Assembly: GCA_049675585.1 (NCBI GenBank)
Contig: JBAUAJ010000126.1
Coordinates: 1,554-65,553, forward strand
Direction: 5' to 3'
DNA length: 64,000 nucleotides
DNA from: Thermoplasmata archaeon
GTDB taxonomy: Archaea; Thermoplasmatota; Thermoplasmata; Lutacidiplasmatales; UBA184
Numbering within the stretch: position 1 is the first letter of the stretch; the number at the start of each line of letters is the position of its first letter. The position numbers were made by a program, and so were the translations under genes. Under the pieces are notes generated by a model. It had not been told where the DNA came from. It did no database searches and was given only the letters and a program-made list of their open reading frames with translations. This document shows positions 22,285-46,129 of the stretch, piece by piece.

Positions 22285-22503
22285 GTGCTAGACGATACCC
22301 CTACCACCATTACCGTCCGCAGCTCCACACTGAGGGCTCTCTCCCTCTACAAGATTGGAAAGAGGAGCTACGACGAAGTTCTCCGTGATTTGATGGACGA
22401 GGTCCCTCCAGCCTCTTTTCTCAAGTGGGCACAGGATGAAGTTCGCCGGCCCGGCGTCAGCCTCGAGGAGGCCAGGAAACGCTTGGGTCTCGCAAGTCAC
22501 TGA
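22285..22503 (+). CDS. Antitoxin (DUF217/VapB-like family)
   Basis: 72 aa with a GTG start and TTITVRSSTLRALSLYK.GKRSYDEVLRDLMDEVPP. Its stop overlaps the toxin start. Confidence 0.7.
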   Translation: MLDDTPTTITVRSSTLRALSLYKIGKRSYDEVLRDLMDEVPPASFLKWAQDEVRRPGVSLEEARKRLGLASH

Positions 22504-22772
22504 TGCCACGCGTCACTTTCTCTCCGGAAGGATTGAGATCCCTCGCCCGCCTTCCGGCCGAGGATCGAAATCGGTTCAACGAAGCCTTCACAATCTTGGA
22601 AGCGGAGGGGCCAAGAGCCGCCGTACTAGATTCGCATCGGCTGTCGGGCGCACGTGAACTCTGGACTCTTCGAATCGGAGTATACCGCGGGGTTTACCGA
22701 TGGCAGCTTGACGAAGCCAAATTCATCCGATTCGGCCACCGGTCCGCCGTCTATCAACGACTTCCGAAGTAG
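22503..22772 (+). CDS. RelE/ParE-family type II toxin
   Basis: 89 aa with LWTLRIGVYRGVYRWQLDEAKFIRFGHRSAVY. Confidence 0.8.
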   Translation: MPRVTFSPEGLRSLARLPAEDRNRFNEAFTILEAEGPRAAVLDSHRLSGARELWTLRIGVYRGVYRWQLDEAKFIRFGHRSAVYQRLPK

Positions 22773-22787
22773 GTTTTCTGGCTCGGT

Positions 22788-22805
22788 GTTCAATCACGAT
22801 TGAGC
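22788..22805 (+). repeat. Intergenic palindrome site S9
   Basis: GTTCAA tcacga TTGAGC (1 mismatch). The arms extend to GTTCAATC / GATTGAGC. It is 16 nt after the toxin stop. Confidence 0.75.
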
Positions 22806-22878
22806 CCACTTTGTAGACGAACCCATCAGCCAGAGGGGGGATACAAGTTCTTATCATGGGGATGCCTAACGGTACCTG

Positions 22879-23157
22879 ATGGCAGTCAGCCGGTCAGTCC
22901 ATCGCCCTGACGTTACCCTGGGGACGACAGAAGTCGTGATGTCTCTCCTTCAGGAAGCTGGAGACCCAGTAAGCCGGAACTGGCTTCTCCTCAGACTTAA
23001 GGAGTCTGGCCACACCACCAGCCGGGCCCGGTTGAATCGAGCGCTGGGCTTCTGCTTCGAGCATGCCTTGGCTATCGAGGGTTCCAAGGGGATTCAATGG
23101 ACCCACACAACGAGCCCAAGCCTACTTCGGAGCCTGGCGAAGGGAAGACGAATCTGA
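22879..23157 (+). CDS. Small winged-helix-like protein, putative antitoxin/regulator
   Basis: 92-aa ORF 10 nt upstream of a RelE-like gene, with a helix-rich segment SRNWLLLRLKESGHTTSRARLNRAL. The assignment is positional. Confidence 0.45.
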   Translation: MAVSRSVHRPDVTLGTTEVVMSLLQEAGDPVSRNWLLLRLKESGHTTSRARLNRALGFCFEHALAIEGSKGIQWTHTTSPSLLRSLAKGRRI

Positions 23158-23166
23158 GGACCGGGC

Positions 23167-23514
23167 ATGCCATTCCGGCCCGAGGAGATCATCGTACACG
23201 AGGAAGTGGAGGGGAGCTATCAGTCGTGGGAAGTTCTCGCTTCACAACAACGTCAGCCAGCTCAGGCAGTCTGGAAGAGCCTACAGGTCGCCATTTCCCG
23301 TCTCAGGACAGATGCGCAGTGGGGCGAACTGATCAAGCATGGGTCCATTCCTTCGTACTTTCGATCCAAGTACGGAGTGTCGAATCTATACTGCGTGGAT
23401 CTCGCAGCCTTCCATAGATGCTTCTATACGATCGCCAACCGAGCAGTAATCCTCCTCGATATAGTTGACCATCCGAGCTACGACAAGTGGTTCCCTGGCC
23501 GACGTAGTCGCTGA
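23167..23514 (+). CDS. RelE/ParE-superfamily-like toxin
   Basis: 115 aa with the C-terminal pattern NLYCVDLAAFHRCFYTIANRAVILLDIVDHPSYDKWF, which resembles the RelE/YoeB core strands. Confidence 0.55.
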   Translation: MPFRPEEIIVHEEVEGSYQSWEVLASQQRQPAQAVWKSLQVAISRLRTDAQWGELIKHGSIPSYFRSKYGVSNLYCVDLAAFHRCFYTIANRAVILLDIVDHPSYDKWFPGRRSR

Positions 23515-23548
23515 ACCAGTCTGGCCCGCAGGCTGGTCACCCACGTGT

Positions 23549-23566
23549 GTGCAAGAGGCGTTGAAC
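23549..23566 (+). repeat. Intergenic palindrome site S10
   Basis: GTGCAA gaggcg TTGAAC (1 mismatch), 35 nt after the 23514 stop. It shares extended similarity with S11. Confidence 0.75.
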
Positions 23567-23632
23567 CCAAACTTAGAGACTCGGTGGGACTGTCAGGCGG
23601 TTGTATGCTTGGCCGACAAGCTCTCGAGGCGG

Positions 23633-24031
23633 TTAGTCCACTATTGAATGGACTTGGCCGCCGAGAACTCTTGCGCGTTTTGCAATCTCTATCGCAACCT
23701 TCATAGTTACAGCACGGTCCTCGTACTCGACTTCTCCCTTCCGGTCAAGGATACGCGATAGGAGAGAGCCGACCTCACCCGCGTTCGGCGCTTTACACCG
23801 GGCGATCAGTGTGAGGACCTCGTGGTGATCCTGGCCGCGAGAGCGCTCACTCCGCAAGTAGATCGTGTAAGCATCTGCGTAGGCGATTGCGGCTTGGACA
23901 GCATTTGTTGCCACCCCGTCGGGATTCGCTTCCCTTTCCGCCAGCTCGACTATCTTTAGCAGATTGTCAGCGCGACCGAGGTAAACCGTGGCCCTCGTCT
24001 TTGGAAGAACTTGGACACGAGATTGCGCCAC
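23633..24031 (-). CDS. HEPN-domain toxin of a HEPN-MNT pair
   Basis: 132 aa, all-helical, with the R-x5-H motif (RSRGQDHH). It is 3 nt downstream of the MNT gene. Confidence 0.7.
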   Translation of the reverse strand: MAQSRVQVLPKTRATVYLGRADNLLKIVELAEREANPDGVATNAVQAAIAYADAYTIYLRSERSRGQDHHEVLTLIARCKAPNAGEVGSLLSRILDRKGEVEYEDRAVTMKVAIEIAKRARVLGGQVHSIVD

Positions 24032-24034: not shown

Positions 24035-24673
24035 TTACACCGTAAGCGCGATTCCTTCATCCATGACATGGCGGATTAGACTCGGATTGGACGGATGGCG
24101 CAGCTGAGCTGTGTCCATTACGAGAGCTGAGAGTGGGTTTCCGAATCGCAAAGCAAAGCCGGCGCTGGCTTCACTCAGGGCACTCTCAACTCTCTCTTTG
24201 TCCACCTGTGATCGGACCTCGACGAACAGATCTACGTCGCTAGCCAATCGAGCTTCCCCTCTGGCAATCGACCCAAAGAGAAACGCCCGTTGAATGGGCA
24301 AGGTTCGAAGCAGGCTCTCAATCTCCAGCTTGAGCATGCCCTTTGCGCCTGCCTCTTCCCGAAAGAGATTGACGAGAAGATTGCACAGCACGTGCTCCTG
24401 TGCCAGCCGCCAGATATGCGAGCGTCCGCTCACATCTCGGAATATTACTCCCGAATCGCGAAGCGACTCCAACGCCAGGTTTGTTTGAGAGGGAGATGCG
24501 CCAGCGGTGCGCGCCAATTCTCGACCAGTGAACCCCTTCTCAGGGAGCCGCGCGAGAGCCCTCAGGACCCGAATGCGAATTGGATTGCCCAGGAGATCAT
24601 CTAGCCCATCCTGAAACCTCATGTTCGAATAATCATACATTCGTTTGATTATAAGAACATCACTTTCACCCAA
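24035..24673 (-). CDS. wHTH + minimal nucleotidyltransferase (MNT) antitoxin
   Basis: 212 aa. The N-terminal wHTH reads RIRVLRALARLPEKGFTGRELARTAGASPSQ. The NTase motif is LFGSIARGEARLASDVDLFV. Confidence 0.75.
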   Translation of the reverse strand: MGESDVLIIKRMYDYSNMRFQDGLDDLLGNPIRIRVLRALARLPEKGFTGRELARTAGASPSQTNLALESLRDSGVIFRDVSGRSHIWRLAQEHVLCNLLVNLFREEAGAKGMLKLEIESLLRTLPIQRAFLFGSIARGEARLASDVDLFVEVRSQVDKERVESALSEASAGFALRFGNPLSALVMDTAQLRHPSNPSLIRHVMDEGIALTV

Positions 24674-24741: not shown

Positions 24742-24759
24742 CTGCAAGGGGCGTTGAAC
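24742..24759 (+). repeat. Intergenic palindrome site S11
   Basis: CTGCAA ggggcg TTGAAC (2 mismatches). tgtcTGCAAGgGGCGTTGAAC closely matches S10 tgtgTGCAAGaGGCGTTGAAC. Confidence 0.65.
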
Positions 24760-25166: not shown

Positions 25167-27446
25167 ATGACAAGGCGCTGTCCCCGAGCAATGAGCTTGG
25201 TTACGGTCGCGATCTGTGCCGCTCTCCTGATGGGAACCGTCTCATCCTTTACACCACGGCCCGAAGCTCACCCCACGTCGCGGGGGCCCATCGACTTGGT
25301 ATCTCCCGCCTCCATGCTAGGACCGTTGACGCTCGTGAGCCCGAATTTTCAGACTGGGGGTGAATTCGGGGAGTCTGTTGCGATTAGCGGTTCGACGATG
25401 GTGGTCGGGGCTCCTGGCGAGGCGGACTCAGGTCAGAGTGATGCAGGAAACGCCTACGTTTTCGACGCCCAGACGGGAAAGCTGACTTCGAAGTTTAGAA
25501 GCCCGAACGCTCAAAGCAGCGGGCAGTTCGGTTCGTCAGTCGCAATTAGCGGCTCTATAATCGTGGTTGGAGCACCCGGCGAGGTGGCCTCCGGCCTGAA
25601 TGGGTCTGGCCATGCCTACGTCTTCAACGCGACCACCGGCAAGCTGATTTCTGCACTGAGTAGTCCAAACCCTCAAAGTGGTGGGGAGTTCGGCTTTTCA
25701 GTTGCGATCAGCGGATCGAACGTGGCAGTCGGGGCGCCGGGGGAGTTGATTCAGGGTAACTGGGCCAACGGAAACGTCTACGTCTTTGCCACCACCACGG
25801 GTTCGCTGATTTTTTCGATATCAAGCCCCTTTGAACGAGACCCCGGATACTTCGGGTCGTCCGTCTCCATTGGGGGGAATTCTATCGTAATCGGCGAGCC
25901 GGAGGAGGGGACGGCCCCGGCTTCACCAACCGGTGCATCATACGTCTACAGTGCGACGGACGGCGCCCAAACCATGGCATTTATCGGTGCGGGGGATCCA
26001 GGGTATTTTGGAGCCTCTGTGGCCACGACTGGCTCACTGGCGGCAATCGGGGCGCCTGGATGCCCGATTTCGGAGGGAAACTGCCAATCCAACGGGGCCC
26101 TGGTTTATGACGTGGCCTCCGGGGCAGGAGTCTCCTCATTCTCCAGTCCGAACCAGCAAGATCTCGGTGCGCTGGGAGCGTCAATCTCGATTGCCGGTTC
26201 TGATGTGCTGGTCGGGGCGCCTGGTGAAAACGGAGACGCGGGCAATGCCTACGTGTTCAATGCGACGACGGGCGCCCTGCTGTCCACTCTGACCAGTCCG
26301 AACCCGCAAGGGGGCGGACTGTGGGGCCAGAGCGACGGGGAGTTCGGGGACTCGGTCGCGATAGGCGGCACGACTGTAGTCGTAGGAGCGCCGGGTGAGC
26401 AAGCATTGGGGTTCACATCCGCGGGCCACGCCTACCTCTGGGTGACCTTCAAACCGGTCTATGGCGTGGCCTTCGCGGACATCGGACTTGTGCCGGGCGC
26501 CCTATGGTGGGTAAACATAACTGGACAGCCGCCTCTTAACTCGACCGAATCAACCATCTCCACGAGTCTGCCGAACGGGACCTATACGTACACCGTCGCG
26601 TCGGCGAACAAGCGTTACTCCGGTGAAGGGGGCAGTTTTTACGTCCATGGGACGGCAGTACCGGTGTTCGTTGAATTCAGTCGGGTGACCTTTCGAGTGA
26701 CGTTCGAAGAGTCGGGGCTGCCCACGAAAGTGATGGAGAACCGTGGGTGGACGGTAGTTCTGAACGGAACACGCAAGCACAGTCGGACCAGCGTGCTCGA
26801 CTTCACGGAGATTCCGAATGGGACCTACCCGGTGCTCATCACCGGACCGTCGGGCTTCGAAATGACGGGTAGCGGGCTGGTGACGGTGAAGGGGGCGACC
26901 TCGGTTGCGGTCGCGACGACGAAAGGTAAAACGGTGACACTTTCGTTTGCTGAGAAGCAGTTGCCAAGATTGGGCGGTACAGTACAGGGCTGGTGCGTTG
27001 AACTGGACGGGGCGCCGCTCTGCTCGACGAAGGGGCAATTCAGGTACCTCAACCTAACACCTGGGAACTACAGCTTCGATGTGGTCTCGCCGTCGAAGGG
27101 CCAGCAGATCTCATGGAAGCTGGGAAGTTCTTGGACAGTAGGAACCGAGGGATTCCTAACGCTGGTCCGCTCGATGTCGATTGTAGTGAAATTTCTGTAC
27201 GACTACACCGTGACATTCTATGAGAGAGGCCTCTCGTCCTCTACATGGGCGGTAAGAATCGGGGGATGGTCTTTCGAGACAGCCAATGGACTGGCAATCC
27301 AGGTCTATCTCCCGAATGGCACGTACACCTACAAGATCGGGGCAGAGCCGGGCCAGACGAGCTCCGGCGTGCCCGACAAGGTGCAGATCGATGGTGCAAA
27401 CATGTCTGTCACCGTGAATTTCCGAGGAGCGGGTCTGGGCCCATAG
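25167..27446 (+). CDS. FG-GAP-repeat beta-propeller surface protein with four GLP-W-NGT modules
   Basis: 759 aa with a signal peptide. About 7 repeats have the form G.FG.SVAISGS..VVGAPGE......G.AYVF. The C-terminus has FRVTFEESGLP...GWTVVLNG, YTVTFYERGL..STWAVRIGG and ...LPNGTYTYKI. Confidence 0.85.
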   Translation: MTRRCPRAMSLVTVAICAALLMGTVSSFTPRPEAHPTSRGPIDLVSPASMLGPLTLVSPNFQTGGEFGESVAISGSTMVVGAPGEADSGQSDAGNAYVFDAQTGKLTSKFRSPNAQSSGQFGSSVAISGSIIVVGAPGEVASGLNGSGHAYVFNATTGKLISALSSPNPQSGGEFGFSVAISGSNVAVGAPGELIQGNWANGNVYVFATTTGSLIFSISSPFERDPGYFGSSVSIGGNSIVIGEPEEGTAPASPTGASYVYSATDGAQTMAFIGAGDPGYFGASVATTGSLAAIGAPGCPISEGNCQSNGALVYDVASGAGVSSFSSPNQQDLGALGASISIAGSDVLVGAPGENGDAGNAYVFNATTGALLSTLTSPNPQGGGLWGQSDGEFGDSVAIGGTTVVVGAPGEQALGFTSAGHAYLWVTFKPVYGVAFADIGLVPGALWWVNITGQPPLNSTESTISTSLPNGTYTYTVASANKRYSGEGGSFYVHGTAVPVFVEFSRVTFRVTFEESGLPTKVMENRGWTVVLNGTRKHSRTSVLDFTEIPNGTYPVLITGPSGFEMTGSGLVTVKGATSVAVATTKGKTVTLSFAEKQLPRLGGTVQGWCVELDGAPLCSTKGQFRYLNLTPGNYSFDVVSPSKGQQISWKLGSSWTVGTEGFLTLVRSMSIVVKFLYDYTVTFYERGLSSSTWAVRIGGWSFETANGLAIQVYLPNGTYTYKIGAEPGQTSSGVPDKVQIDGANMSVTVNFRGAGLGP

Positions 27447-27642: not shown

Positions 27643-28839
27643 ATGCCAATCGAGCCCCCGGGGGACGAGCCTACGTGGAAGAAAGAAATTCTCGCGATCA
27701 TTCGGGGCCAGTGGAACCCCAACCAGGTTTTCTCGTTGGAAGATCTCTATGCGATATCGGGTCCGCTTGCAAAGCGCCATGCGTCCAATCGGAATGTCGA
27801 GGAGAAAATCAGGCAGATACTTCAGCAGCTCCGGGATGACGGAGAGATTACCTTTGTTGACTTCGACGGTCACTACTCATCGAGCAAGCTCAAACTAGAT
27901 CCTGGCGACGGCATCCTCCGCGTGCCTACCCAGGACCTGAGATCGCAGCTGATTCGGATCCGAGACATGCTCGGAGAGGTAGTGCGAAGCTCTGAGCTCC
28001 AACGTCAGATTCGAGGCTTTGGCAGCCAGAAGGGAATCTACAAACCGTCCGGCTCGAGATACGCACTCTGGGTGCGTCAGACACTGAAGAGCCCCTACCC
28101 AGACAGAGACCTCCGTTACCGCCCCGATGGGTCGTGGACCTATCGCTACTCGCCGGAAGGTCGAGCGGGATTGATCGATTTGAACTTGGACGCTAACAAG
28201 AGTCTTCTGAGATGCATGGAGGATCATGTCCCGGTCGGCGTGTTCAGACAAATTTCGGGAGGGGGAGGACTGGCGACCTATGAGATTCTAGGACTCGCCA
28301 TAGTCGAATCCTTCGATGGTGAGCACTTCGTATTGCATGGAGAATCGATTGAGCCGGAGAAGACGCCAGCGTTTGCAAATATGTCGCCGAAGTTTCTACC
28401 ATTCGAATTTTCCACAGGACGCCACGATTTGGTTTCACGAATCGTCCGGGATCATCGCTTTGGCGTAGCCGTGCGAAGAATCTACCACGAGCGGTGCAGT
28501 CTTTGCAACATTGGGTTCAGAGTGGGGGGCCAATCGACGGCGCTGGATGCTGCCCACATCATTCCGGTTAACGAAAAAGGAGTTATGGGGGACCTACGAA
28601 ACGGAATTCTCCTCTGTAAAAACCACCACGCACTTTTCGACGACTATGCTTGGACGATGGATTCCGACCTATCTGTCAGATTGGCTCCAGACAAAGGATT
28701 GAGAGAATCTGCCCTTGGAAACCATATTGTCAGCCTCGAAGGCAAACGTCTCCCAAACCTGCCTACTGAAGAGGAAAACCGCCCCGCTGCTGAAGCGGTA
28801 CGATGGCGGCTCGATCGATTCGACCGTGCTTGGAGGTAG
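27643..28839 (+). CDS. HNH endonuclease with N-terminal wHTH-like and central SRA/YDG-like region (putative type IV restriction enzyme)
   Basis: 398 aa. The C-terminal HNH_2-type motif is CSLCNIGF...LDAAHIIP...RNGILLCKNHHALFD. The central GIYKPSGSRYALWVRQ...YRYSPEGR resembles the PUA-like SRA/YDG fold (lower confidence). Confidence 0.7.
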   Translation: MPIEPPGDEPTWKKEILAIIRGQWNPNQVFSLEDLYAISGPLAKRHASNRNVEEKIRQILQQLRDDGEITFVDFDGHYSSSKLKLDPGDGILRVPTQDLRSQLIRIRDMLGEVVRSSELQRQIRGFGSQKGIYKPSGSRYALWVRQTLKSPYPDRDLRYRPDGSWTYRYSPEGRAGLIDLNLDANKSLLRCMEDHVPVGVFRQISGGGGLATYEILGLAIVESFDGEHFVLHGESIEPEKTPAFANMSPKFLPFEFSTGRHDLVSRIVRDHRFGVAVRRIYHERCSLCNIGFRVGGQSTALDAAHIIPVNEKGVMGDLRNGILLCKNHHALFDDYAWTMDSDLSVRLAPDKGLRESALGNHIVSLEGKRLPNLPTEEENRPAAEAVRWRLDRFDRAWR

Positions 28840-28999
28840 TGGTTCCCAGACTTCGACAAGCCGACGCCGATCACTCAATGCGCAGGGGTGGCACTGGTCG
28901 GCAGGCGCAGCGTTTCTCGCTCGCCGCCTAGCGAAGGTCGATGGGGCCACCGAAAGAGCTCGGGGTCAACTGATTGGTTAGACTCTGCCGCACATACAG

Positions 29000-29017
29000 G
29001 TGCAATTCTCATTGTGC
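29000..29017. repeat. Possible degenerate palindrome site S12
   Basis: GTGCAA ttctca TTGTGC (3 mismatches), intergenic between 28839 and 29087. Not significant on its own. Confidence 0.4.
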
Positions 29018-29086
29018 ACACCTTTCGCAGAGGCGACTTGAAAGCTGAATAGCGGGAGGTAGCTCACCAGCCTCGCTGGAGAGCAT

Positions 29087-29626
29087 GTGTTCGGGAGTCG
29101 CGGAACTCGCTGGCTTGCTCCGAATAGATACGCGTCGACTTGCGTCAGGTGTGAGCAGACAGTTCCAGCGGGCACTGGTGAGTTTCGAAATGATGGCACC
29201 AGGTGGATCGTTCGCCACTCCGGTGGTCTGTGCCACACGGTCGCATACACTCAGTACGTCTCACAGGAATCCGTGCAATGGCAGCAGGTTCGTCACGCCC
29301 GAATGGAATACTCTGGCTATCAGTGTGAATGGCGGGGATGGTTCTCGGGACGGTGCATCGTGACCTGGCCCCTCCAATGTCATCACCGTCACTATCGAAA
29401 TCTGGGCGCCGAGCCCCTCGGTGATTTGATTATGCTCTGCATTCCGCACCACAACCTAGCTGACAGTCGGCGCAAACTCTGGGGAGCCTGGCCCCTGATC
29501 GGCCACCCGTTTTGGAACGCGTCCGCCCCAATCGCCGATAGTTCCCATCAGCCCGGCCCAACCTCCCCGTCGGCTACGGTGCGGACGGCCGATCAATCCG
29601 TCCAGCCACCGCCCGAATCCAAATGA
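29087..29626 (+). CDS. HNH nuclease domain protein with N-terminal zinc ribbon
   Basis: 179 aa with CVRCEQ...LCH and an HNH core QCHHRHYRNLGAEPLGDLIMLCIPHHN. Confidence 0.65.
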   Translation: MFGSRGTRWLAPNRYASTCVRCEQTVPAGTGEFRNDGTRWIVRHSGGLCHTVAYTQYVSQESVQWQQVRHARMEYSGYQCEWRGWFSGRCIVTWPLQCHHRHYRNLGAEPLGDLIMLCIPHHNLADSRRKLWGAWPLIGHPFWNASAPIADSSHQPGPTSPSATVRTADQSVQPPPESK

Positions 29627-29681
29627 CCGGGGCATCGCGCGAGGCCGTCGCTCCGAGGCTAATGACCCGGAATCTGACTGG

Positions 29682-29699
29682 CTACAATTCCTGTTGAAC
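29682..29699 (+). repeat. Intergenic palindrome site S13
   Basis: CTACAA ttcctg TTGAAC (2 mismatches), 56 nt after the 29626 stop. Confidence 0.6.
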
Positions 29700-29808
29700 A
29701 TAGACAACCCGATTAAGGGGCTTGCCCGCCCTCCACGGACTCTCCCTGGAGAATTAGTCTACCTCGGCGAGGCAAGTTGTGATATTGCGCTCTTGTCGAG
29801 TTTAAAGC

Positions 29809-30093
29809 TCAGCGAACACCCAAAGACGGGGTTCCTTGATCTGTTAACGGAGGCTGCAGCACCGACTTCCTTAGCTTTCTTTCCGCCGAGATAAGACGGA
29901 CTAGCTGTTGCGCTTGCACAGAGTAGACTGGGAGCCCAGTGTTTCCGTCGTTTCCCACCCTGAGGACGCCCATGACGACAGTTTGTAGCTCCACGATGGC
30001 GCCCTCTTTGACCTTTATCCGAATCTTGCCGTCCCCCTCCTCAACAAACCAGTCAACGAGATCTGCATTAGCCAGATTTGGCGAGGGCTGCAT
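29809..30093 (-). CDS. Hypothetical protein (third gene of an orphan three-gene operon)
   Basis: ATG at 30093, 2 nt after the stop of 30096..30506: MQPSPNLANADLVDWFVEEGDGKIRIKVKEGAIVELQ..., 94 aa. The longer track ORF (to 30486) overlaps the upstream gene out of frame. Confidence 0.4.
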   Translation of the reverse strand: MQPSPNLANADLVDWFVEEGDGKIRIKVKEGAIVELQTVVMGVLRVGNDGNTGLPVYSVQAQQLVRLISAERKLRKSVLQPPLTDQGTPSLGVR

Positions 30094-30095
30094 CG

Positions 30096-30506
30096 CTACT
30101 TCCCTCCCCTGGACTTGCGCGCAAGGGACGTCGCGACTAGCTGCATCTGAAGCCAGTTGGTGACGGGACCAAACAAGCTGTTTCTGGAGACGTCCTGAAC
30201 TCGAAAGGCTAGCATAGGCTTCTCGGGCAGGTGAACTTCCTTCTCGAATTTCGGCATGGGAGCAGCTTCGACTCCCTCCCACACAAGCTCTCCGTCGAGG
30301 AAACGCTGAGTAAGCGCCTCCGACCCCTGCCCCCCCCCAAGGGCTTGAAATCTGAACAACACCCCATTCCCCCAGAAACACGCCGCCACCCCGGCGGCAT
30401 TTGATGGGATATTGTCGGTCGCAGTTTGCATGAACTCCTCTGCGTTGGCATACAGAGTGAGTGCCTTGATCTCCAGCTTTTCCCATGGTTTGTATTCGAC
30501 TTTCAT
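30096..30506 (-). CDS. Hypothetical protein (136 aa)
   Basis: The ORF has balanced composition (MKVEYKPWEKLEIKALTLYANAEEF...). It starts 9 nt after the stop of 30516..30968. No family recognised. Confidence 0.5.
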   Translation of the reverse strand: MKVEYKPWEKLEIKALTLYANAEEFMQTATDNIPSNAAGVAACFWGNGVLFRFQALGGGQGSEALTQRFLDGELVWEGVEAAPMPKFEKEVHLPEKPMLAFRVQDVSRNSLFGPVTNWLQMQLVATSLARKSRGGK

Positions 30507-30515
30507 TTCTTGCTC

Positions 30516-30968
30516 CTATGCAGATGTTGGGCTACTCTGAATCAGAACTGCTGTTGCGTCCCTGACTGGCGTTAGCTGTGATCTCCCAAGCGTGGTGCCG
30601 GTCAAACTCGGAGCCGAACTTGATTCTATGATCGGGACGAGTCCACTCATGCCGAGAACCGTACGAAGGTCATCAGGAAGTTTCGCGAATGTCTCTGGCA
30701 TCCGGGTCCAATCGATCATGTGAAACCACTCTGCCTTCTGAGCCATAAGAAACAGGAACTCCTTGTTACGAACACCTAACTTCTGCCCAATTTCCTTAGG
30801 AATAGTCACTCGAAGAATCGAGTAGTCCTTTCCCCTCCGGGTGCGGACTTTGTGGACTCGGGCGACAAAAGGAACGGCAGAAGGTGAGTAACGAATCGTC
30901 GTCCTCGAGAGTACCACGGTTTCCGTCGTCACAGACACCGGAGCCGCCACGGCCGTCCCCTGATCCAT
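30516..30968 (-). CDS. AbrB/SpoVT-like domain protein
   Basis: 150 aa. The segment YSILRVTIPKEIGQKLGVRNKEFLFLM resembles the swapped-hairpin AbrB/MazE fold. Confidence 0.55.
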   Translation of the reverse strand: MDQGTAVAAPVSVTTETVVLSRTTIRYSPSAVPFVARVHKVRTRRGKDYSILRVTIPKEIGQKLGVRNKEFLFLMAQKAEWFHMIDWTRMPETFAKLPDDLRTVLGMSGLVPIIESSSAPSLTGTTLGRSQLTPVRDATAVLIQSSPTSA

Positions 30969-31030
30969 GCCTTACCTAACTCGACACGCCTTATATAAGT
31001 GTGTACATACAATATGTAGTGTGATAACAC

Positions 31031-31357
31031 ATGCCTGTGGAGCTTGAGCCGTTCGATACGGCCGTGCTGGTTGCGTTGGCTCACGCATGCAATCAGTCGT
31101 TGTCGGCTCACCCACCCATTCATGCGATTCAATCAAAATTCGCAAAACATCTACGAGGGGATGTGCCTCGTTCTCTTGATCGCCTGAGGCGCAATCGATA
31201 CTGTCAGAAGCACCCAACGGGTGGTGGTATCACTTGGCAACTAACCAGGGAGGGGCTGGTCCTGGCACTATCGATCCTCCAAGGCACGCCCGGCCCGACA
31301 AGAATCGGTAGCGATTCAGGCGCCGATGGGATCCCCGATCGCGCCCGGTCCCCATGA
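31031..31357 (+). CDS. Winged-helix DNA-binding protein, divergent from the 30968 operon
   Basis: 108 aa with FDTAVLVALAHA...SLDRLRRNRYCQKHPTGGGITWQLTREG, a wHTH-like pattern. Confidence 0.5.
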   Translation: MPVELEPFDTAVLVALAHACNQSLSAHPPIHAIQSKFAKHLRGDVPRSLDRLRRNRYCQKHPTGGGITWQLTREGLVLALSILQGTPGPTRIGSDSGADGIPDRARSP

Positions 31358-31519: not shown

Positions 31520-31537
31520 GTTCAATTCTTGTTGAAC
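31520..31537 (+). repeat. Intergenic palindrome site S14
   Basis: GTTCAA ttcttg TTGAAC, exact, with flanks tgt / ct. Confidence 0.9.
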
Positions 31538-31675: not shown

Positions 31676-32077
31676 TTAGTATGATTCGATGTGGAGTCCA
31701 GTCGCCTCGGCGATGTAGTAGAAGTCCTTGTCGCGGGTGACGAGGCTATGGCCGCCCGAAAGCGCGATCCCTGCAGTGAGTATGTCCGCGGCTCCTTTGA
31801 TTCGGCCCAGGCTCAATAACTCGGTCTGGACCTCGGCCGCACGTTCCGCAGCCCCCAAGTCCAGGGGCGCCACTTGAAACTTGGTAACGTACCCTCTGAA
31901 CCTCGTCGCCTGCGTCTTGGATCGCGCCCGCAGGATGCCAGTTAGGACTTCGTAAATCACTGGCGTTGGAAGAACTATGGAATCGGCCCGGCCTTCCAAC
32001 TCCTCGAGCTTCCGAGTGGCCGCCGGAAGTCGTCGCGAGAAGTCTATGAAGAACGTAGAATCAATTGCGACGCCCAC
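31676..32077 (-). CDS. vapC: PIN-domain VapC toxin
   Basis: AIDSTFFIDF...LPTPVIYEVL...ADILTAGIALSGGHSLVTRDKDF shows the PIN acidic residues. GTG at 32077 was chosen as the start (17-nt overlap with vapB). The track start at 32143 is less likely. Confidence 0.75.
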   Translation of the reverse strand: MGVAIDSTFFIDFSRRLPAATRKLEELEGRADSIVLPTPVIYEVLTGILRARSKTQATRFRGYVTKFQVAPLDLGAAERAAEVQTELLSLGRIKGAADILTAGIALSGGHSLVTRDKDFYYIAEATGLHIESY

Positions 32078-32321: not shown

Positions 32322-32419
32322 GTGTCAATGCCAATGCACACACGAGCATTTGAAACTTGAGGTCGGGCTGGAATCTGACGCGTCGGTGGCCCTCCTTGAT
32401 TTCCATCCACTGCGCCCAG

Positions 32420-32437
32420 GTTCAACCCTTCTTGAAC
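32420..32437. repeat. Intergenic palindrome site S15
   Basis: GTTCAA cccttc TTGAAC, exact. Polarity is ambiguous. It is 99 nt beyond the vapB start. Confidence 0.9.
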
Positions 32438-34720: not shown

Positions 34721-34738
34721 GCTCAACTCCTGTTGAAC
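34721..34738 (+). repeat. Intergenic palindrome site S18
   Basis: GCTCAA ctcctg TTGAAC (1 mismatch), with 5' flank gtgt. Confidence 0.75.
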
Positions 34739-36238: not shown

Positions 36239-36468
36239 GCCAGCCCAGCCTTCCTAAGAACCCGTTTGCCGGGGATGCGCTTCTCCGTACGCCACCGCCG
36301 CTCTACTTCGGCGTAGAACTCCTCATCGAAGTGAGCATCCTCAAGGAGATCTTGCAGCACGTCATCGAAACTCTCACCCTGCCCCTTTACAGACTCCAGA
36401 AGTCGTCGAGTCCGCTCGGTCACGGTGATCGTAGTTGGACGGGTAAGCGATGCGGACACGAGCATCAA
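36235..36468 (-). CDS. Antitoxin (DUF217/VapB-like family)
   Basis: 77 aa with TTITVTERTRRLLESVKGQGESFDDVLQDLLED. Confidence 0.7.
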   Translation of the reverse strand: MMLVSASLTRPTTITVTERTRRLLESVKGQGESFDDVLQDLLEDAHFDEEFYAEVERRWRTEKRIPGKRVLRKAGLA

Positions 36469-36579
36469 TTGTATCCAATTGATATAAACCCTGGCCAGGA
36501 GATGGAGTGTGAGTTCACTCGAAGGATGCCATCATCCGTGAATCACCAAGGTCCGTCCGGGGCGAATCCGGCACCCTGC

Positions 36580-37540: not shown

Positions 37541-37558
37541 GCTCAAGACTTGTTGAAC
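37541..37558 (+). repeat. Intergenic palindrome site S21
   Basis: GCTCAA gacttg TTGAAC (1 mismatch), 86 nt before the 37644 start. Confidence 0.75.
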
Positions 37559-40478: not shown

Positions 40479-40496
40479 GTTCAACTATTGTTGAGC
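40479..40496 (+). repeat. Intergenic palindrome site S23
   Basis: GTTCAA ctattg TTGAGC (1 mismatch), with 5' flank ggt. Confidence 0.75.
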
Positions 40497-40596: not shown

Positions 40597-43500
40597 TCAC
40601 TTTGGGTCCTGATCTGAGGTAGACGGCGGAGGGGCCGAGCCTCCCTTCGAACGTCGGACGAGGAATGCTCCGATCCCGATCAAAATGACCGCCCCGATTG
40701 CTCCGAGGAGCAGGTAACCCTCGGTCGCGGGGAGGCCCAGGAGGGTGGGCGCGGCACTTCCCGGATTGTGTGCGTTAGACTGGAAGGTAACCGCCCGGTC
40801 TATCGTCCCGCCCGTGACCGTAAACCCACCGCCCGTAGCCGAATAGTTTCGATTTGCGGACGCGGTCGTATAGGTGTAGCTTCCGTTCGGTAGAGCGATC
40901 GATGCCGCCGCACCGACGGAGCTCAGCGGGACCTCACCGGAGATGTTGACCCACCACTCCGTCGTGGCGGGCAGTCCACTTTCCGTGAAAGTCACTAGAT
41001 ACGTCACCAGCTCGAAGCTGACCGGCTGTGAAAGGTCCGCCCCATTCACGAGAAGGGCTCCGGAGCTCGCCGAGTAGCTCGAGTCATCGGATTTTACTGT
41101 ATACGTGTAACTCCCGTTGGAGGCACTGAAGTTGACCGAGGCGTGGCCGTCGGACCATCGCGTCACCGAGACGACCGAGAGAATAATGGAAGAAGCGCTA
41201 CCGGTCAAGGTCACCGACCAGTTCGTGTGGGCGGGGAGCCCCGACTCAGTCAGGGTGACGGAGTACACCAAGTCGAACGAGAGCAGGATCCGAATCGCGT
41301 CGCTCGCCACCGATAGAGAGCCTGCCGAAATGGTCGGGACATACTCTCCCACGGACGGCACGGAATAGCTGTAACTGCCGTTCGGTTCGGTAAAGTTGTC
41401 AGCCCTCGCGCTAGATGCCTGCGAGCTTCCGTTGAGAACCACCGACCAGGTGGTCGCCATGGGCAGACCGGTCTCCGCGAAACTCACGGGATTCGGCACG
41501 GGATGACCGGGGGTGAGGATCGAAATCGTTCCCTGGCCGAAATCGCAGACATACACTAGTCCGGTGGTCGTGTCGACCGCGATCGAATTCGGATCCGACC
41601 CCACGCTCAGAGTGGCCAGAATAGCATCGGTAACGTACGAGACGACGCTCACGTTGTTCGATCCGGAGTTCACCGAATCGACCTCGCCCGTCGCGCGATC
41701 GTAGGCAACTGCTTGGGGCCCCGTTCCGACGCTAACATTCGCGATCGAATTTCCCGTCGTCGAAGAGAGTACTTGGACCTTGCCGAGCCCATTGTTCGCG
41801 GCGAATAGCTCCCCATTCGGCCCGTCGTAGGCAAGGGCGTAACCGCCGGTTTCAAAGAAGGAGCCGGTCACTGTATCCGTTGCGTCGGAGATCACGCTGA
41901 TATTCTCCGATCCGAGGTTGGACACGAACATCTCTCCGTCGAGAGGGTCGTAGGCGATCCCTTGGGGTTCGGTCCCAACCGCGATGTTCGCAACGACGTC
42001 GTCGGTCGCGTCCGAAATTACGCTCACGTCGTCACCTAGGAATGTGGTGACGAATACTTGCCGAGTGTGCGGGTCAAATGCGAGCTGAGACGGTTCGCCT
42101 TCCACGTGGACCGTAGCCACGACGTGGTCGCTCGTATCGTTGATGACGCTCACCGCGCCCGACCCGTAGTCCGCGACGAAGATCTCGCCCATCGGCCTAT
42201 CATACGCCAGGCCCATCGGGCCGATCCCGACCTTTACCTGCGAGACGATCTCGTTCGTCCCGGCCGAAATCACATCCACGTCTCCTTCTCCCGAATCGGC
42301 GGCGAAGATCTCGCCTTTCGCACGGTCGTATGCGAGGCCGTCGGGACTGGTTCCTAATGGAATCGTGGCCGAGACCGCGTCCGAGACGTCGGAGAGGACG
42401 CTCACATTGTTCGAGGCCGAGTTGGCTGTGTAGATAGCCGCCCGCGCCGCATCGTACGCCATCCCCAGCGGTTCCGTCCCCACAGGTACGGTGGCGAGGA
42501 CATTGTTCGTCGCAGCAGAAATGACGGTCGCAGTATCTGACCCGGAATTAGAGACGAAAACATCCCCCAGCCCGCCGTCGTAGACCACGTCGTACGGGTT
42601 GTTCCCCACGCCGATGTTCTTTGCGACAGTGTAGACGGAATCCCGGACTACGGTCACGTTCCGCGAACCCAGGTTCGCTACGAAAATCTCCCCTTGGGCA
42701 CTATCGTAGGCAACTCCGCCGGGGCTTGCACCGACCCCGACCGTCGTGATGACGCTATCGGTCGACCCCGAGATCACGCTTAGATTTCCCGCTGTACCGA
42801 AGGACAGGTTGGTGGTGGAGACCCAAATCTCCTGGGTCCCGCTGTCGTACGCCGCGCCCAGGGGTTGATTGCCGACCTTGACCGTCTTCACCACCGAGTT
42901 CGAGGCGTCGGAGATCACGCTGACAGTGTCGCCGCCATAGTCCGCGACGAAGATCTGGCCCGTAGTGCCGTCGTAGGCCATCGCCATCGGATCCGGACCC
43001 ACAGGGATTGTCGCGATGACCGTGTTGTTCGAGTCCGCGATAACGCTAACATTGTGCACCCCAGAGTCGGCGGTGAAAATCTCACCCTTACCGCTGTCGT
43101 AAACGACCCCCCCGACCGAAGAGCCGATCGAGATCGTAGCGACGACCGTGTCCGTTGTGTCGGAAATGACACTTACCGAGTCGGATTCAAGGTTAGCGAT
43201 GAATACTTCGGACTTCGCGGGATCGTACGCGACCGAATGAGGAGAGACGCCGTTGGCGGCGAGGAAGTTGCCCGGAACTAGCGTGTTGTTAAGCAGCACC
43301 AATGTAGCTGAGACGCTCGGTAGGGATCCCTCGGGGGCAACGCCAGCCGCTACAGCAGCGGGACGAGCAAGGGCCGACTCCGCAATCGAGAGATTCGCGG
43401 GACGGCCCGACTCCCCGTGAGCGAGGGCGGGGGTCAAAGGCGGCGAAGCGAAACTAGAAAGGCGGAATGCGGGGAGATTGGTGATTGGGAGGCCTAGTCC

Positions 43501-43602
43501 GCTGAGGATGAGCACACCAACGAAAAGGAAGAGGAACCCGCGGCGACAGGCCTGATTCCGGGCGGTCGTCCCCTTCCGATGCACCCTCGTATCCCCTCCC
43601 AC
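40597..43602 (-). CDS. Giant YVTN beta-propeller surface protein (about 14 blades) with GLP-W-NGT modules and C-terminal anchor
   Basis: 1001 aa with an N-terminal TM/signal. It has many repeats of the form P.G.AYD...GEIFVAN.GS.NVSVI. The C-terminus has VSFAETGLPMATTWSV, YSVTLTESGLPAHTNWSV and YLVTFTESGLPATTEWWV, then a TM helix (GYLLLGAIGAVILIGIGAFLV). Confidence 0.9.
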   Translation of the reverse strand: MGGDTRVHRKGTTARNQACRRGFLFLFVGVLILSGLGLPITNLPAFRLSSFASPPLTPALAHGESGRPANLSIAESALARPAAVAAGVAPEGSLPSVSATLVLLNNTLVPGNFLAANGVSPHSVAYDPAKSEVFIANLESDSVSVISDTTDTVVATISIGSSVGGVVYDSGKGEIFTADSGVHNVSVIADSNNTVIATIPVGPDPMAMAYDGTTGQIFVADYGGDTVSVISDASNSVVKTVKVGNQPLGAAYDSGTQEIWVSTTNLSFGTAGNLSVISGSTDSVITTVGVGASPGGVAYDSAQGEIFVANLGSRNVTVVRDSVYTVAKNIGVGNNPYDVVYDGGLGDVFVSNSGSDTATVISAATNNVLATVPVGTEPLGMAYDAARAAIYTANSASNNVSVLSDVSDAVSATIPLGTSPDGLAYDRAKGEIFAADSGEGDVDVISAGTNEIVSQVKVGIGPMGLAYDRPMGEIFVADYGSGAVSVINDTSDHVVATVHVEGEPSQLAFDPHTRQVFVTTFLGDDVSVISDATDDVVANIAVGTEPQGIAYDPLDGEMFVSNLGSENISVISDATDTVTGSFFETGGYALAYDGPNGELFAANNGLGKVQVLSSTTGNSIANVSVGTGPQAVAYDRATGEVDSVNSGSNNVSVVSYVTDAILATLSVGSDPNSIAVDTTTGLVYVCDFGQGTISILTPGHPVPNPVSFAETGLPMATTWSVVLNGSSQASSARADNFTEPNGSYSYSVPSVGEYVPTISAGSLSVASDAIRILLSFDLVYSVTLTESGLPAHTNWSVTLTGSASSIILSVVSVTRWSDGHASVNFSASNGSYTYTVKSDDSSYSASSGALLVNGADLSQPVSFELVTYLVTFTESGLPATTEWWVNISGEVPLSSVGAAASIALPNGSYTYTTASANRNYSATGGGFTVTGGTIDRAVTFQSNAHNPGSAAPTLLGLPATEGYLLLGAIGAVILIGIGAFLVRRSKGGSAPPPSTSDQDPK

Positions 43603-43734: not shown

Positions 43735-43752
43735 GTGCCACCCTCGTTGAAC
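43735..43752 (+). repeat. Intergenic palindrome site S24
   Basis: GTGCCA ccctcg TTGAAC cc (2 mismatches), preceded by gtag. Confidence 0.6.
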
Positions 43753-43845: not shown

Positions 43846-44190
43846 CTATGCCAACTCGAGGACCAGGCGATTCGCCTTCTCCGGCGAGACGAGAACTTCC
43901 TGGCCACTTTTCATCTTGAGGTAGCGTGCGAGAGAGGAGGGAATCCTCACTACAAGTGAATTGCCCGATCGGGCGATTTTGACCTTCGAAGCGAGCCCCC
44001 ACAGACCCAGCTCTTTGGCCTTCTGCTCAACCTTGTGCATGCTCTCACTGCTCAGGAACGACTCTCCGCATCGATCACACACTTCGCCGGGATATTTTCC
44101 GAGGTCAACGCCGAACATCTCCTCGTGCACGGTACCGGGACGAAGGGTCCCTTTGCCACATACAGGACACCGCGATACCACGGTCACCAC
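43846..44190 (-). CDS. Zinc-finger (YgiT/MqsA-type) + AbrB/SpoVT-domain antitoxin
   Basis: 114 aa with CPVCGKG...CDRCGES, then KVKIARSGNSLVVRIPSSLARYLKMKSGQEV. Confidence 0.65.
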   Translation of the reverse strand: MVTVVSRCPVCGKGTLRPGTVHEEMFGVDLGKYPGEVCDRCGESFLSSESMHKVEQKAKELGLWGLASKVKIARSGNSLVVRIPSSLARYLKMKSGQEVLVSPEKANRLVLELA

Positions 44191-44399
44191 CTCGGTTTCA
44201 CCGTAATGACGTAAGTCCGACTGCGCCGGACGACGTAAACGACCTCGAAGTACCGATAGGCGGACGCAACTTTACCGCCCTGGTGAGTCTTAGACCCCAG
44301 TTGGATTGCAATCTCGACCTCCGCCGTCGAGATTCCGCGGAGCACCTTCCTTTGGCGAGCATGACGGCTACAGACGACCTCCCTGGCCATCCAATACAT
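44184..44399 (-). CDS. DUF4258-like toxin
   Basis: 71 aa with SRHARQRKVLRGISTAEVEIAI..G....GGKV...RYFEVVYVV...TYVITV. It overlaps the downstream antitoxin by 7 nt. Confidence 0.6.
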   Translation of the reverse strand: MYWMAREVVCSRHARQRKVLRGISTAEVEIAIQLGSKTHQGGKVASAYRYFEVVYVVRRSRTYVITVKPRW

Positions 44400-44512
44400 G
44401 TATTACTCGTATTACTATTAGGATGCCGTCTCCCGGCTCGGCTCGAGAGTGGAGTTAGCGTAGCAGGTCCCTCTATGCGGGTGCTACATTGGGATGCCAA
44501 GCAGATTCCGTA

Positions 44513-44530
44513 GGCCAACTCTCATTGAAC
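44513..44530 (+). repeat. Intergenic palindrome site S25
   Basis: GGCCAA ctctca TTGAAC ct (2 mismatches), preceded by cgta. Confidence 0.6.
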
Positions 44531-44604
44531 CTCTCCCGGAGGCCGACCGCTATCGCCGGAACCGAGTCGGACAGATGCCGTCCGATTTCACGTCCGGGGG
44601 AGGA

Positions 44605-45048
44605 CTACTTCCGCCCGCGAGCAGCAGCAGCCTTTGCAGCCAGTGCCGCGAACTCTTCCCGGCCGAACGCAGTTCCGGACAACCCCCAGCCCCCTTCCGC
44701 GGCTTCGGTGAGCAGCACCCAGGTTCGACTAGCCTGTGTCGGATCACCTGAGATCCGAGTTACGATCTCTGTAACTTCGTTGACGAGCTGCTTCTGACCC
44801 TCTCGATTCAGAGCCGCGGGCGGAGTGATAATCTGGACACGCACAGTGCGAGCGGAGTCGGTAGCAGCCGTGTGGACCGTTTTGGGATCCATACGATGAA
44901 TGTACGCGGCGGTGTTGTTCGTGTGAAATGGTCCTGGAGCTACCACTCCTTCTGCCCGGAGGACCGCCCTGGTTAGTTCCTCTGCGAGTTTCCGGTCCGT
45001 TCCCGCGGGGAAGAGGTCGGCCGCGGCGTAGACGTCAATCATCGGCAT
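44605..45048 (-). CDS. Tautomerase-superfamily protein
   Basis: 147 aa starting MPMIDVY (Pro1 after Met removal), with two beta-alpha-beta-like halves (RTVRVQIITPP...). Confidence 0.65.
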   Translation of the reverse strand: MPMIDVYAAADLFPAGTDRKLAEELTRAVLRAEGVVAPGPFHTNNTAAYIHRMDPKTVHTAATDSARTVRVQIITPPAALNREGQKQLVNEVTEIVTRISGDPTQASRTWVLLTEAAEGGWGLSGTAFGREEFAALAAKAAAARGRK

Positions 45049-45137
45049 TGTGTTCTCCCTTTCACGCGCTATATGGGTCCAGCTTTAGAGATTTCGGTTT
45101 CTGCCTACTCTCGAGTAAGTGCAATCAACGAAGGTGC

Positions 45138-45155
45138 GTGCAGTTCTGATTGAAC
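45138..45155 (+). repeat. Intergenic palindrome site S26
   Basis: GTGCAG ttctga TTGAAC (2 mismatches), 90 nt beyond the 45048 start. Confidence 0.6.
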
Positions 45156-45326
45156 TCACGCGTGCCCGCGCAAGCGACATCCGTTCGAGCGGTCGGAGGC
45201 AGCCCACCCTGCCCCACTCCATCGTAAATTCAAGAGGCCGAATCGAATCGACGCCCGGGATGTTCAACGTAGTTAAATGAGAAACCTTACGTATAGGTAA
45301 GTTATCCATTCAAGAAGAGCCGAATC

Positions 45327-45773
45327 ATGCTGACCCTCGAAATCCCGCAGCTCCATTGCTACCGATGCGGGAACACATGGACCCCCCGAGGGCGGATAGT
45401 CCGCATCTGCCCGCGTTGCAAGTCCCCGAAGTGGGAAGAGCCAAAAATCGTGGTCCCCGAGGGGGGAGGGGGCCTCGGGGTGGAGGCGGTTCTCGGCCCC
45501 TACCGGTCAAGAATCAAGCGAATCGCGAAGCAGTACGGCGCACGAGAGATACGTGTATTCGGCTCTGTGGCTCGGAACGCGGCCAGCTCGAGGAGTGATA
45601 TCGATCTGCTCGTGGACTTTGATCAGTCCAAACGTTCAAAATCCGCCCTGCGCTCGATCGACCTCGCGCTCGAACTGGAAAAGCTCCTGGGCCGCCATGT
45701 CGACCTGGTAACAGAGAGCAGTCTGCATTGGTTCATTCAACCGCAAGTTGTGGTAGAGGCGGTCCCACTGTGA
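45327..45773 (+). CDS. Zinc-ribbon + minimal nucleotidyltransferase (MNT) antitoxin
   Basis: 148 aa with CYRCGNTW...CPRCKS, then VFGSVARNAASSRSDIDLLVDF. Confidence 0.75.
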   Translation: MLTLEIPQLHCYRCGNTWTPRGRIVRICPRCKSPKWEEPKIVVPEGGGGLGVEAVLGPYRSRIKRIAKQYGAREIRVFGSVARNAASSRSDIDLLVDFDQSKRSKSALRSIDLALELEKLLGRHVDLVTESSLHWFIQPQVVVEAVPL

Positions 45774-46129
45774 CAACCAAGACGGATCGAGATCGCCTTC
45801 GCGTTACGGCGATGATCCAGGCTGCGGAGGAGGCGAAGCTTGATGCCGCGGTGGGGAAAGAAGAGTTCCTCGAAGGTGGCCGCTCTCAGAAGGCCGTACT
45901 ACTGGATCTAATTCACCTCACAGAGTCCGCCGACAAAGCATCGCTCGGGCTGAAGAAGCTCAATCCCAGGATTCCGTGGGAGCGGCTGAATGGGCTACGA
46001 AATCGTGGACTCGTCCACCACTATGCTGAAATTGACCTAGAGGAAGTATGGGCATTCGTCCGAGACGACATGTCTCGCGTTCGACGCCAACTCGATCATG
46101 TGAAGTTCCCTCGGGACGACGCTCGCTGA
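45770..46129 (+). CDS. HEPN (DUF86) toxin
   Basis: GTG at 45770 overlaps the MNT stop (GTGA). It has LNGLRNRGLVHHYAEID, the DUF86 RN..H.Y-type motif. The track start at 45728 is considered too early. Confidence 0.75.
   Translation: MTTKTDRDRLRVTAMIQAAEEAKLDAAVGKEEFLEGGRSQKAVLLDLIHLTESADKASLGLKKLNPRIPWERLNGLRNRGLVHHYAEIDLEEVWAFVRDDMSRVRRQLDHVKFPRDDAR

Follow-up and report, generated by a model that had tools for sequence, protein, structure and literature searches.

We analyzed a window of 64,000 nt (the whole stretch of DNA considered here, from contig JBAUAJ010000126.1 of assembly GCA_049675585.1, a Thermoplasmata archaeon), with emphasis on positions 22285–46129, a span that a sequence-only reading had singled out for its density of toxin–antitoxin (TA) and defence genes. 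All of the genes listed in that reading exist at or near where it had placed them, each with some independent support, and the profile searches it had proposed (Pfam and PADLOC among them) supported most of the families, several below threshold. By our census there are eight TA modules in the 23.8-kb span, about one per 3 kb, against one in the 40 kb of the window outside it; the eight as listed (three ParE/RelE–ribbon-helix-helix (RHH) pairs, a divergent RelE-fold protein with a 72-aa partner, VapBC, a DUF4258 protein with a zinc-finger/AbrB partner, and two pairs of a minimal nucleotidyltransferase (MNT) with a HEPN protein) include the ParE-1/RHH-1 pair (14042–14595), which falls outside the span. 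This bears out the high density claimed (nominal binomial P about 0.002), for an interval picked after the data had been seen. Non-TA genes of defence type in the span are a FICD-like Fic protein, an HNH nuclease of the modification-dependent type and a second HNH nuclease. The region has a mosaic make-up and was not imported as one block: TA and defence modules with low GC3 (G+C fraction at third codon positions) are interleaved with native-looking genes, and a short palindrome recurs in the spacers between them. The genes concerned are the following, with relatives denoted by label (L001 and so on):

14042–14371, minus strand: ParE/RelE toxin 1; Pfam ParE_toxin (PF05016) 25.0 bits (cut-off 23); orthologue in L001 at 67% identity
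14368–14595, minus strand: RHH (COG1753-like) antitoxin 1; overlaps the toxin gene by 4 nt; 81 orthologues at 61–95% identity
22285–22503, plus strand: RHH antitoxin 2; 29 orthologues at 49–85% identity; TCAATTGA repeats upstream at 22262–22278
22503–22772, plus strand: ParE/RelE toxin 2; below-threshold matches to Gp49 (17.9 bits) and TIGR02385 (RelE_StbE, 14.2 bits)
22939–23157, plus strand: 72-aa putative antitoxin, partner of the RelE-fold protein; the 72 + 115 aa gene pair is conserved in L009 and L011
23167–23514, plus strand: divergent RelE/ParE-fold predicted toxin, 115 aa; AlphaFold2 model with PDB fold matches
23633–24031, minus strand: HEPN protein (HEPN-1), partner of the winged-helix MNT; own score E 0.075; RGQDHH fits the Rx4-6H motif
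24035–24673, minus strand: winged helix-turn-helix (HTH) + MNT protein; Polbeta 35.3 bits, NTP_transf_2 33.5 bits; PADLOC PDC-M05A 6e-21
27643–28839, plus strand: DpnI_C winged helix + HNH_2 nuclease (HNH 1); Pfam 51.7 and 42.8 bits; PADLOC mREase_II, HNH
29087–29626, plus strand: second HNH-like nuclease (HNH 2); matches only PHROG HNH endonuclease families (3.6e-5 and 1e-3), with no Pfam match
31676–32077, minus strand: VapC (PIN) toxin, start inferred; PIN 47.3 bits; four acidic PIN residues visible in the sequence
32061–32321, minus strand: VapB antitoxin; PF02697 49.7 bits against 27.9; GCATTGGCATTG repeat upstream
34799–35698, minus strand: FICD-like Fic AMP-transferase that contains an internal inhibitory motif; Fic 70.8 bits; FICD 8e-27; PADLOC SoFic, PDC-S04
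35936–36238, minus strand: ParE/RelE toxin 3; ParE_toxin 32.2 bits against 23; 89% identical orthologue in L136
36235–36468, minus strand: RHH antitoxin 3; Pfam VAPB_antitox (PF02697) 30.0 bits against 27.9; 8 orthologues at 75–89% identity
43846–44190, minus strand: zinc-finger (YgiT/MqsA-type) + AbrB-like antitoxin; TIGR03831 29.3 bits against 20.2; AbrB/MazE tail (MazE_antitoxin) below threshold
44184–44399, minus strand: DUF4258 toxin candidate; 24.3 bits against a Pfam cut-off of 25 (0.7 under); 32 of 35 homologues carry PF14076
45327–45773, plus strand: zinc-ribbon + MNT protein; NTP_transf_2 54.5 bits (1.6e-14); PADLOC PDC-S09 3.5e-31
45770–46129, plus strand: HepT (HEPN RNase), start inferred from a GTGA overlap; HepT-like 49.4 bits (4.4e-13)

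Three RelE/ParE toxins had been said to share one antitoxin family, and they do. Two of the three (14042–14371 and 35936–36238) pass a curated RelE/ParE profile, while ParE-2 is 42–49% identical to confirmed members of the ParE-1 group and has a 70% identical orthologue in L137, partnered by the same antitoxin. Individually the antitoxins at 14368–14595 and 22285–22503 have no Pfam match; their link to the third runs through hhalign, which aligned their family profile to the PF02697-positive family over the N-terminal 42 residues (probability 96.8%, E 2.4e–10). The antitoxin profile found nothing useful among PDB sequences, and an RHH fold is predicted for these proteins from hhalign and the literature (PMC2701414). 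COG1753/DUF217 is an archaeal RHH antitoxin family usually found with PIN toxins and, in several methanogens, with RelE-like toxins (Makarova, Wolf and Koonin 2009, PMC2701414); the published table holds 10 RelE–COG1753 pairs, and RelE–RHH was among the three commonest TA combinations of that survey. The pairing of RelE with DUF217, flagged by the sequence-only reading as a hybrid, is real and conserved, but it is not novel: since the DUF217/COG1753 antitoxin has the RHH fold, it is an ordinary RelE–RHH system, already published. Like the pair MA0375–MA0376 of Methanosarcina acetivorans, ours form archaeal two-gene operons, antitoxin first, with an N-terminal strand-helix-helix antitoxin domain of the TTITV type and a toxin of the RelE/ParE superfamily; they differ in coming from Thermoplasmata rather than methanogens, in being three diverged paralogous pairs within 22 kb, and in that two of the antitoxins have drifted under the Pfam threshold.

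The three pairs are 28–42% identical to one another, toxin and antitoxin diverging in step: pairs 1 and 2 share 41% identity in the antitoxin and 42% in the toxin, pairs 1 and 3 share 29% and 28%. The antitoxins have separate orthologue groups (81, 29 and 8 members in other contigs), and the same toxin–antitoxin pairing recurs in L001, L005, L136 and L137 with different neighbours. Separate orthologue sets, kept pairing and this level of identity argue that the pairs are old paralogous units and not recent in-situ copies, which speaks against the first of the two origins (duplication in place and independent acquisition) that were to be told apart. Having diverged as units, they are presumably insulated from each other. 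Beside an inverted ParE pair in L005 lies an orphan 72-aa RHH antitoxin gene (10001–10219), without a toxin and alone between two palindromes. Beside the ParE pair of L001 (8416–9854) lie an ArsR-type HTH gene and then two AHSA1/START-domain genes, a combination not present in the window and one that has been predicted as a TA system (Makarova 2009, PMC2701414).

A fourth RelE-like pair had been placed at 22879–23514. Its toxin is borne out by fold and not by any profile: the 115-aa protein has no match in Pfam, NCBIfam, PADLOC or PHROGs, and it found nothing useful among PDB sequences, but its AlphaFold2 model (pLDDT 91, built on 33 homologues) matches the RelE/ParE toxin fold in all 50 PDB entries listed (RelE, ParE, HigB, YoeB, YafQ and the RelE-like Cami1). 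For the best 24 of these the probability is 0.84–1.0, with a target-normalised TM score of at most 0.74 and E about 1e–2 at best. By hhalign (query excluded) its family aligns to the ParE trio with only 14% probability, short of membership by sequence profile. The protein is thus modelled as carrying a RelE/ParE fold, with a toxin role predicted. Judging by relatives, its partner is a 72-aa product with its start at 22939 and not the 92-aa open reading frame (ORF) first proposed, and this partner has no family match in profile searches. The 115-aa protein has 105 homologues, those named being from Thermoplasmata or Euryarchaeota metagenome-assembled genomes (MAGs).

The remaining TA modules belong to other known families. 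At 31676–32321 a PIN toxin is preceded by a small antitoxin of DNA-binding type, so that the VapBC identification holds. The two HEPN–MNT pairs with different accessory domains were likewise recovered: the GS...DxD motif of MNT and the Rx4-6H motif of HEPN are visible in both, pair 2 passes both profiles, and for pair 1 the HEPN assignment comes from homologues of HEPN-1, 28 of 48 of which match PF05168 and two of which are MarR–NTase–HEPN fusions (HEPN-1 itself found nothing useful among PDB sequences). They share with HEPN–MNT (type VII) TA systems the adjacent MNT and HEPN genes and both motifs, and differ in the extra N-terminal domains of the MNTs, a winged HTH (in the form that PADLOC matches to its candidate PDC-M05A) or a zinc ribbon.

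The Fic protein carries both hallmark motifs, HPFGDGNGRIGR (of the HxFx(D/E)GNGRxxR type) and TNRIEG (of the (S/T)xxxE(G/N) type). It would by these belong to the self-inhibited class, resembling FICD, and is not obviously a toxin; the relatives returned by a metagenome scan with it do not exceed 65% identity and show no synteny. The two HNH nucleases of the sequence-only reading fared unequally. HNH 1 is supported by Pfam for both its domains, and its HNH part matches TagI (6ghs, 7.7e–4), a modification-dependent nuclease, which it probably resembles in being a modification-dependent restriction nuclease; HNH 2 is known only through the PHROG families. These two genes and three small unassigned proteins make up the block of lowest GC3 (27643–31357, 0.50–0.64). 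One of the small proteins has an AbrB-like 'RVTIPKEI' motif and one is winged-helix-like, with no family relatives found, and scans of viral contigs with two proteins of the block returned no relatives.

Genes within the TA pairs overlap by 1–7 nt, stop against start. An A/T-rich, TATA-like box stands about 25–35 nt before the start codon of the TA operons, with short repeats between box and start, so that these promoter and operator elements occupy the 5–35 nt upstream. In the ParE-3 operon (36466–36481) TTTATAT is followed by CAATTG-GATA-CAATTG abutting the ATG, and both box and repeat are kept in L136, where the non-coding DNA around them has otherwise diverged. Repeats also precede the ParE-2 operon (TCAATTGA-T-TCAATTGA, 22262–22278), VapB (GCATTGGCATTG, 32327–32338) and the DUF4258 operon (GTAATAC-GA-GTAATAC, 44402–44417). 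The short direct or inverted repeats upstream of these four operons are probably antitoxin operators, and the layout suggests autoregulated, leaderless or nearly leaderless transcripts. Each module would be an independent two-gene operon with its own box and operator repeats. By analogy with their families, the antitoxins of the type II pairs would bind and block the toxin and repress their own promoter, and loss of the antitoxin would let the toxin stop growth, by ribosome-dependent mRNA cleavage or gyrase poisoning for RelE/ParE and by RNA cleavage for PIN; in the MNT–HEPN pairs the nucleotidyltransferase would keep the HEPN RNase inactive.

The GC3 comparison per module that the sequence-only reading had proposed separates the modules from their neighbours: it is 0.56–0.70 for TA and defence genes, 0.73–0.78 for the interleaved resident-looking genes (TauE, a methyltransferase, an NHL protein and a secreted 206-aa protein) and 0.78–0.87 on the right flank. 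Overall GC rises from 56–60% at 19–47 kb of the window to 65–67% at 53–64 kb; no Rfam family was found in the window. No relative found keeps the gene order of the window. The modules appear in shifting contexts: L132 has a homologue of Fic with unrelated neighbours, the ParE-2 pair adjoins UbiD and AcnX genes in L137, the 72 + 115 aa pair has two further contexts in L009 and L011, and L136, the closest distinct relative, has ParE-3, VapBC and HepT–MNT modules side by side within 2.4 kb, adjoining a cyclase–TPR gene. The closest relatives of all modules are in the same Thermoplasmata clade, and the named homologues are nearly all assigned to a Thermoplasmata, Thermoplasmatota or Euryarchaeota archaeon.

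We consider it quite probable that the span belongs to a stretch of accessory, variable chromosome (about 6–52 kb) in which small, self-contained addiction or stress modules have built up piecemeal among resident genes. The TA genes are additional, mostly lineage-specific members of well-known families. Of the 'accessory, horizontally assembled region' proposed from the sequence, the accessory and variable character stands (lower GC3, no conserved order, shifting contexts) and the discrete imported island does not. That the whole span came in at once, as a horizontally gained defence island or an integrated mobile element, is very improbable. Its GC, lower than that of the right flank, and its clustering of TA and candidate defence genes would fit such an origin, but among the scanned ORFs of the window there is no integrase or transposase, and neither a tRNA gene nor flanking direct repeats were found; resident-like genes of high GC3 are interleaved; the named homologues of the modules all come from Thermoplasmata or Euryarchaeota MAGs; and the two proteins tried have no relatives on viral contigs. 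Even the label 'defence island' is generous, because there is no CRISPR-Cas and no paired restriction-modification, and Fic is self-inhibited; the defence matches are PADLOC candidates only (mREase_II/HNH, SoFic/PDC-S04, PDC-M05A and PDC-S09), and a search of the window for a CRISPR repeat array, a methyltransferase–nuclease pair or a mobile-element gene found none.

Several points weigh against a specially TA-rich, variable accessory stretch. Loci of relatives, all selected via TA genes, likewise hold 2–4 modules per 10–20 kb, and with a census covering 64 kb of the genome an equally high TA density may occur elsewhere in it. The nearest different genomes share only 60–89% protein identity; the lack of synteny is therefore weak evidence for extra variability of this stretch, and there may be general synteny loss across the genome. 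ParE-2, the 115-aa protein, HEPN-1, DUF4258 and HNH 2 score under curated family thresholds, their assignments coming from homologues, profile–profile comparison or predicted folds, and the structure model of the antitoxin is of low confidence (pLDDT 61).

Chromosomes rich in TA modules are known from the superintegron of Vibrio cholerae, from Mycobacterium tuberculosis and from Sulfolobus. The present stretch shares with them the packing of unrelated and paralogous modules among accessory genes, at about one per 3–7 kb. It differs in having no integron integrase and no attC sites, in having genes on both strands, and in that large genes for surface proteins lie among its modules. Several propeller proteins, large and secreted (Kelch, FG-GAP, NHL), are encoded at 8076–9737, 25167–27446, 40597–43602 and 50025–51677; their C-termini have in common a repeated unit of about 85 aa, marked by the motif 'V.F.E.GLP.GT.W.V', that looks like a lineage-specific surface-protein domain. 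Farther right, the genes at 54902–56869 (minus strand) and 59577–61646 (plus strand) are divergently oriented paralogues, with stretches of 64–187 nt at 74–79% identity (inverted repeats I1–I4); the former encodes an adenylate/guanylate cyclase–TPR protein, a homologue of which directly adjoins the TA clusters of L005 and L136.

The palindrome has the consensus GTGG-GTKCAA-N6-TTGMAC-CCA(C), about 24 nt with arms of 9–10 nt around a 6-nt centre (69 copies from the window and Thermoplasmata relatives). At one mismatch or fewer there are 23 copies in the window, against 0.1 in shuffles, and about 25–30 sites in all over 6416–51819. Those nearest the genes discussed are:

13922–13939: downstream of ParE-1
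14806–14823: upstream of RHH-1
22126–22143: left of the ParE-2 module; the contig of an independent assembly ends 21 nt to its right
22788–22805: between the ParE-2 and 72 + 115 aa modules; a contig of the independent assembly starts 14 nt to its left
23549–23566: between the RelE-fold pair and HEPN, centre reversed
24742–24759: upstream of the winged-HTH MNT, centre reversed
29682–29699: after HNH 2, two mismatches
31520–31537: downstream of VapC
32420–32437: upstream of VapB
34721–34738: between Fic and TauE
35894–35911: 25 nt past the ParE-3 stop codon
36580–36597: upstream of RHH-3
37541–37558: in the divergent spacer between the 206-aa gene and YdjM
40479–40496: between the NHL protein and the methyltransferase
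43735–43752: downstream of the DUF4258 module
44513–44530: upstream of the DUF4258 module, two mismatches
45138–45155: in the divergent spacer between tautomerase and MNT
46173–46190: 44 nt past the HepT stop codon

Judged against the curated gene list, the 23 sites at one mismatch or fewer all fall between genes, except that at 51802, which overlaps the start of a doubtful ORF (51771–52208). The sites are 18–26 nt long and mostly lie 0–150 nt past a stop codon. Allowing two mismatches, they occupy 25 of the 38 spacers at 6–52 kb, whether tandem (12 of 17), convergent (7 of 11) or divergent (6 of 10), and none of the seven spacers in the high-GC part at 52–64 kb. Every TA module examined sits between two palindromes, both in the window and in L001, L005, L011 and L136. 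In other MAGs the palindromes also flank non-TA genes (abhydrolase, MFS, MMPL, oxidoreductase) and so are not TA-specific; a scan of GTDB gave, among the matches listed, at least 10 Thermoplasmata loci mixed with chance bacterial matches. Arm position 3 is T/A in the window and L136 and G/C in more distant relatives. The 6-nt centre is strand-biased and genome-specific (13 pyrimidine-rich against 3 purine-rich in the window, 6 of 6 in L136, 7 against 1 in L001), and covariation was found neither in the centre nor between variable arm positions within a genome.

This palindrome family appears to be undescribed. We rate punctuation, REP-like (that is, like repetitive extragenic palindromes) or protein-binding, as more likely than a recombination site for cassettes. 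That the palindromes are REP-like or terminator-like punctuation, whether a spread extragenic family or an element bound at 3' ends or by a nucleoid protein, and are unrelated to module mobility, we hold somewhat more probable than otherwise; the sites would then do no more than mark where transcription units end, and the TA modules would seem bracketed only because they are short units. Like bacterial REPs of the GTAG-tagged kind they are short, imperfect and extragenic, lie mostly after stop codons, have lineage-specific stem variants (the T/A or G/C arm) and bear a GTRG/GTGG tag at the 5' end (PMC3733652), and among the matches listed they stand beside many unrelated types of gene in several Thermoplasmata MAGs. 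They differ from these in being archaeal, whereas the survey of REPs lists bacterial phyla only (PMC3733652), in standing singly in a spacer rather than clustered, and in being common in divergent spacers, a placement that is unusual for REPs and surprising in a terminator. The sites are not followed by a T-run, the arms lack pairing covariation, and no RAYT-type transposase was seen in the window.

The other possibility, that the modules form an array of cassettes driven by recombination, with the palindromes as the core sites at which a tyrosine or other site-specific recombinase inserts, excises or inverts them, strikes us as unlikely. Its closest parallels are the cassettes of integrons and, in Acinetobacter plasmids, the dif modules associated with Xer. 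The latter share with the present sites inverted arms around a 6-nt centre and the bracketing of gene modules, TA pairs among them; here the arms are of 9–10 nt and not 11, orientation is mostly uniform and not alternating, and the inner ends read CAA-N6-TTG in place of the dif hallmark TAA-N6-TTA (PMC11840125). Such a function would suit the excess of copies over expectation, their indifference to gene orientation, the bracketing of all TA modules in the window and relatives while neighbours differ, the inversion of the ParE-1 module relative to GNAT in L005, the genome-specific and strand-biased centre, and the missing covariation, more easily squared with a symmetric protein site than with a hairpin under selection. 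The same strain was also assembled independently, and that assembly is interrupted to either side of the ParE-2 module: two Logan contigs of a single run (SRR28061163), 100% identical to the window, cover 7537–22164 and 22774–55198, and the sole gap between them is the ParE-2 operon (22165–22773), both ends within 21 nt of the flanking palindromes. No repeat was found that explains the break, which may be a population polymorphism of one module or an assembly artefact, and contig L141, which is 99.8% identical, shows no structural difference from the window over 3.4 kb. Against recombination stand the lack of a recombinase gene in the window, centres that vary between copies and would hinder classical tyrosine-recombinase exchange, the same palindromes flanking non-TA genes in other MAGs, and the fact that presence/absence polymorphism was not seen directly.

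Three narrower interpretations were rejected. An integron-type cassette array does not fit: the half-sites GTTCAAC/GTTGAAC of the window match the attC R''/R' boxes, yet the sites are too short (18–26 nt against at least 55 nt), the GTGCAA arms of relatives do not conform to RYYYAAC, there is no IntI integrase, genes lie on both strands, and native-like genes are interleaved. A promoter role is contradicted by the distances to start codons, which range from 27 nt to beyond 170 nt and favour no particular spacing. Selection for a hairpin is not evident, no covariation having been found.

The TA content indicates that soil and sediment Thermoplasmata can reach very high TA richness locally, and the 72 + 115 aa pair is a candidate new TA subfamily, missed by Pfam, NCBIfam, PADLOC and PHROGs despite the confidently modelled RelE-like fold of the toxin candidate and its more than 100 homologues. 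The item most worth following is the palindrome family, with which a whole clade of archaea punctuates its accessory genes. REP-like sites would carry REP biology over to archaea. Recombination sites would instead belong to an undescribed archaeal site-specific system, distinct from integrons, that assembles and reshuffles chromosomal TA and accessory cassettes; the ParE-2 assembly gap would then be a live presence/absence polymorphism, and a new way of building archaeal accessory genomes would come into view.

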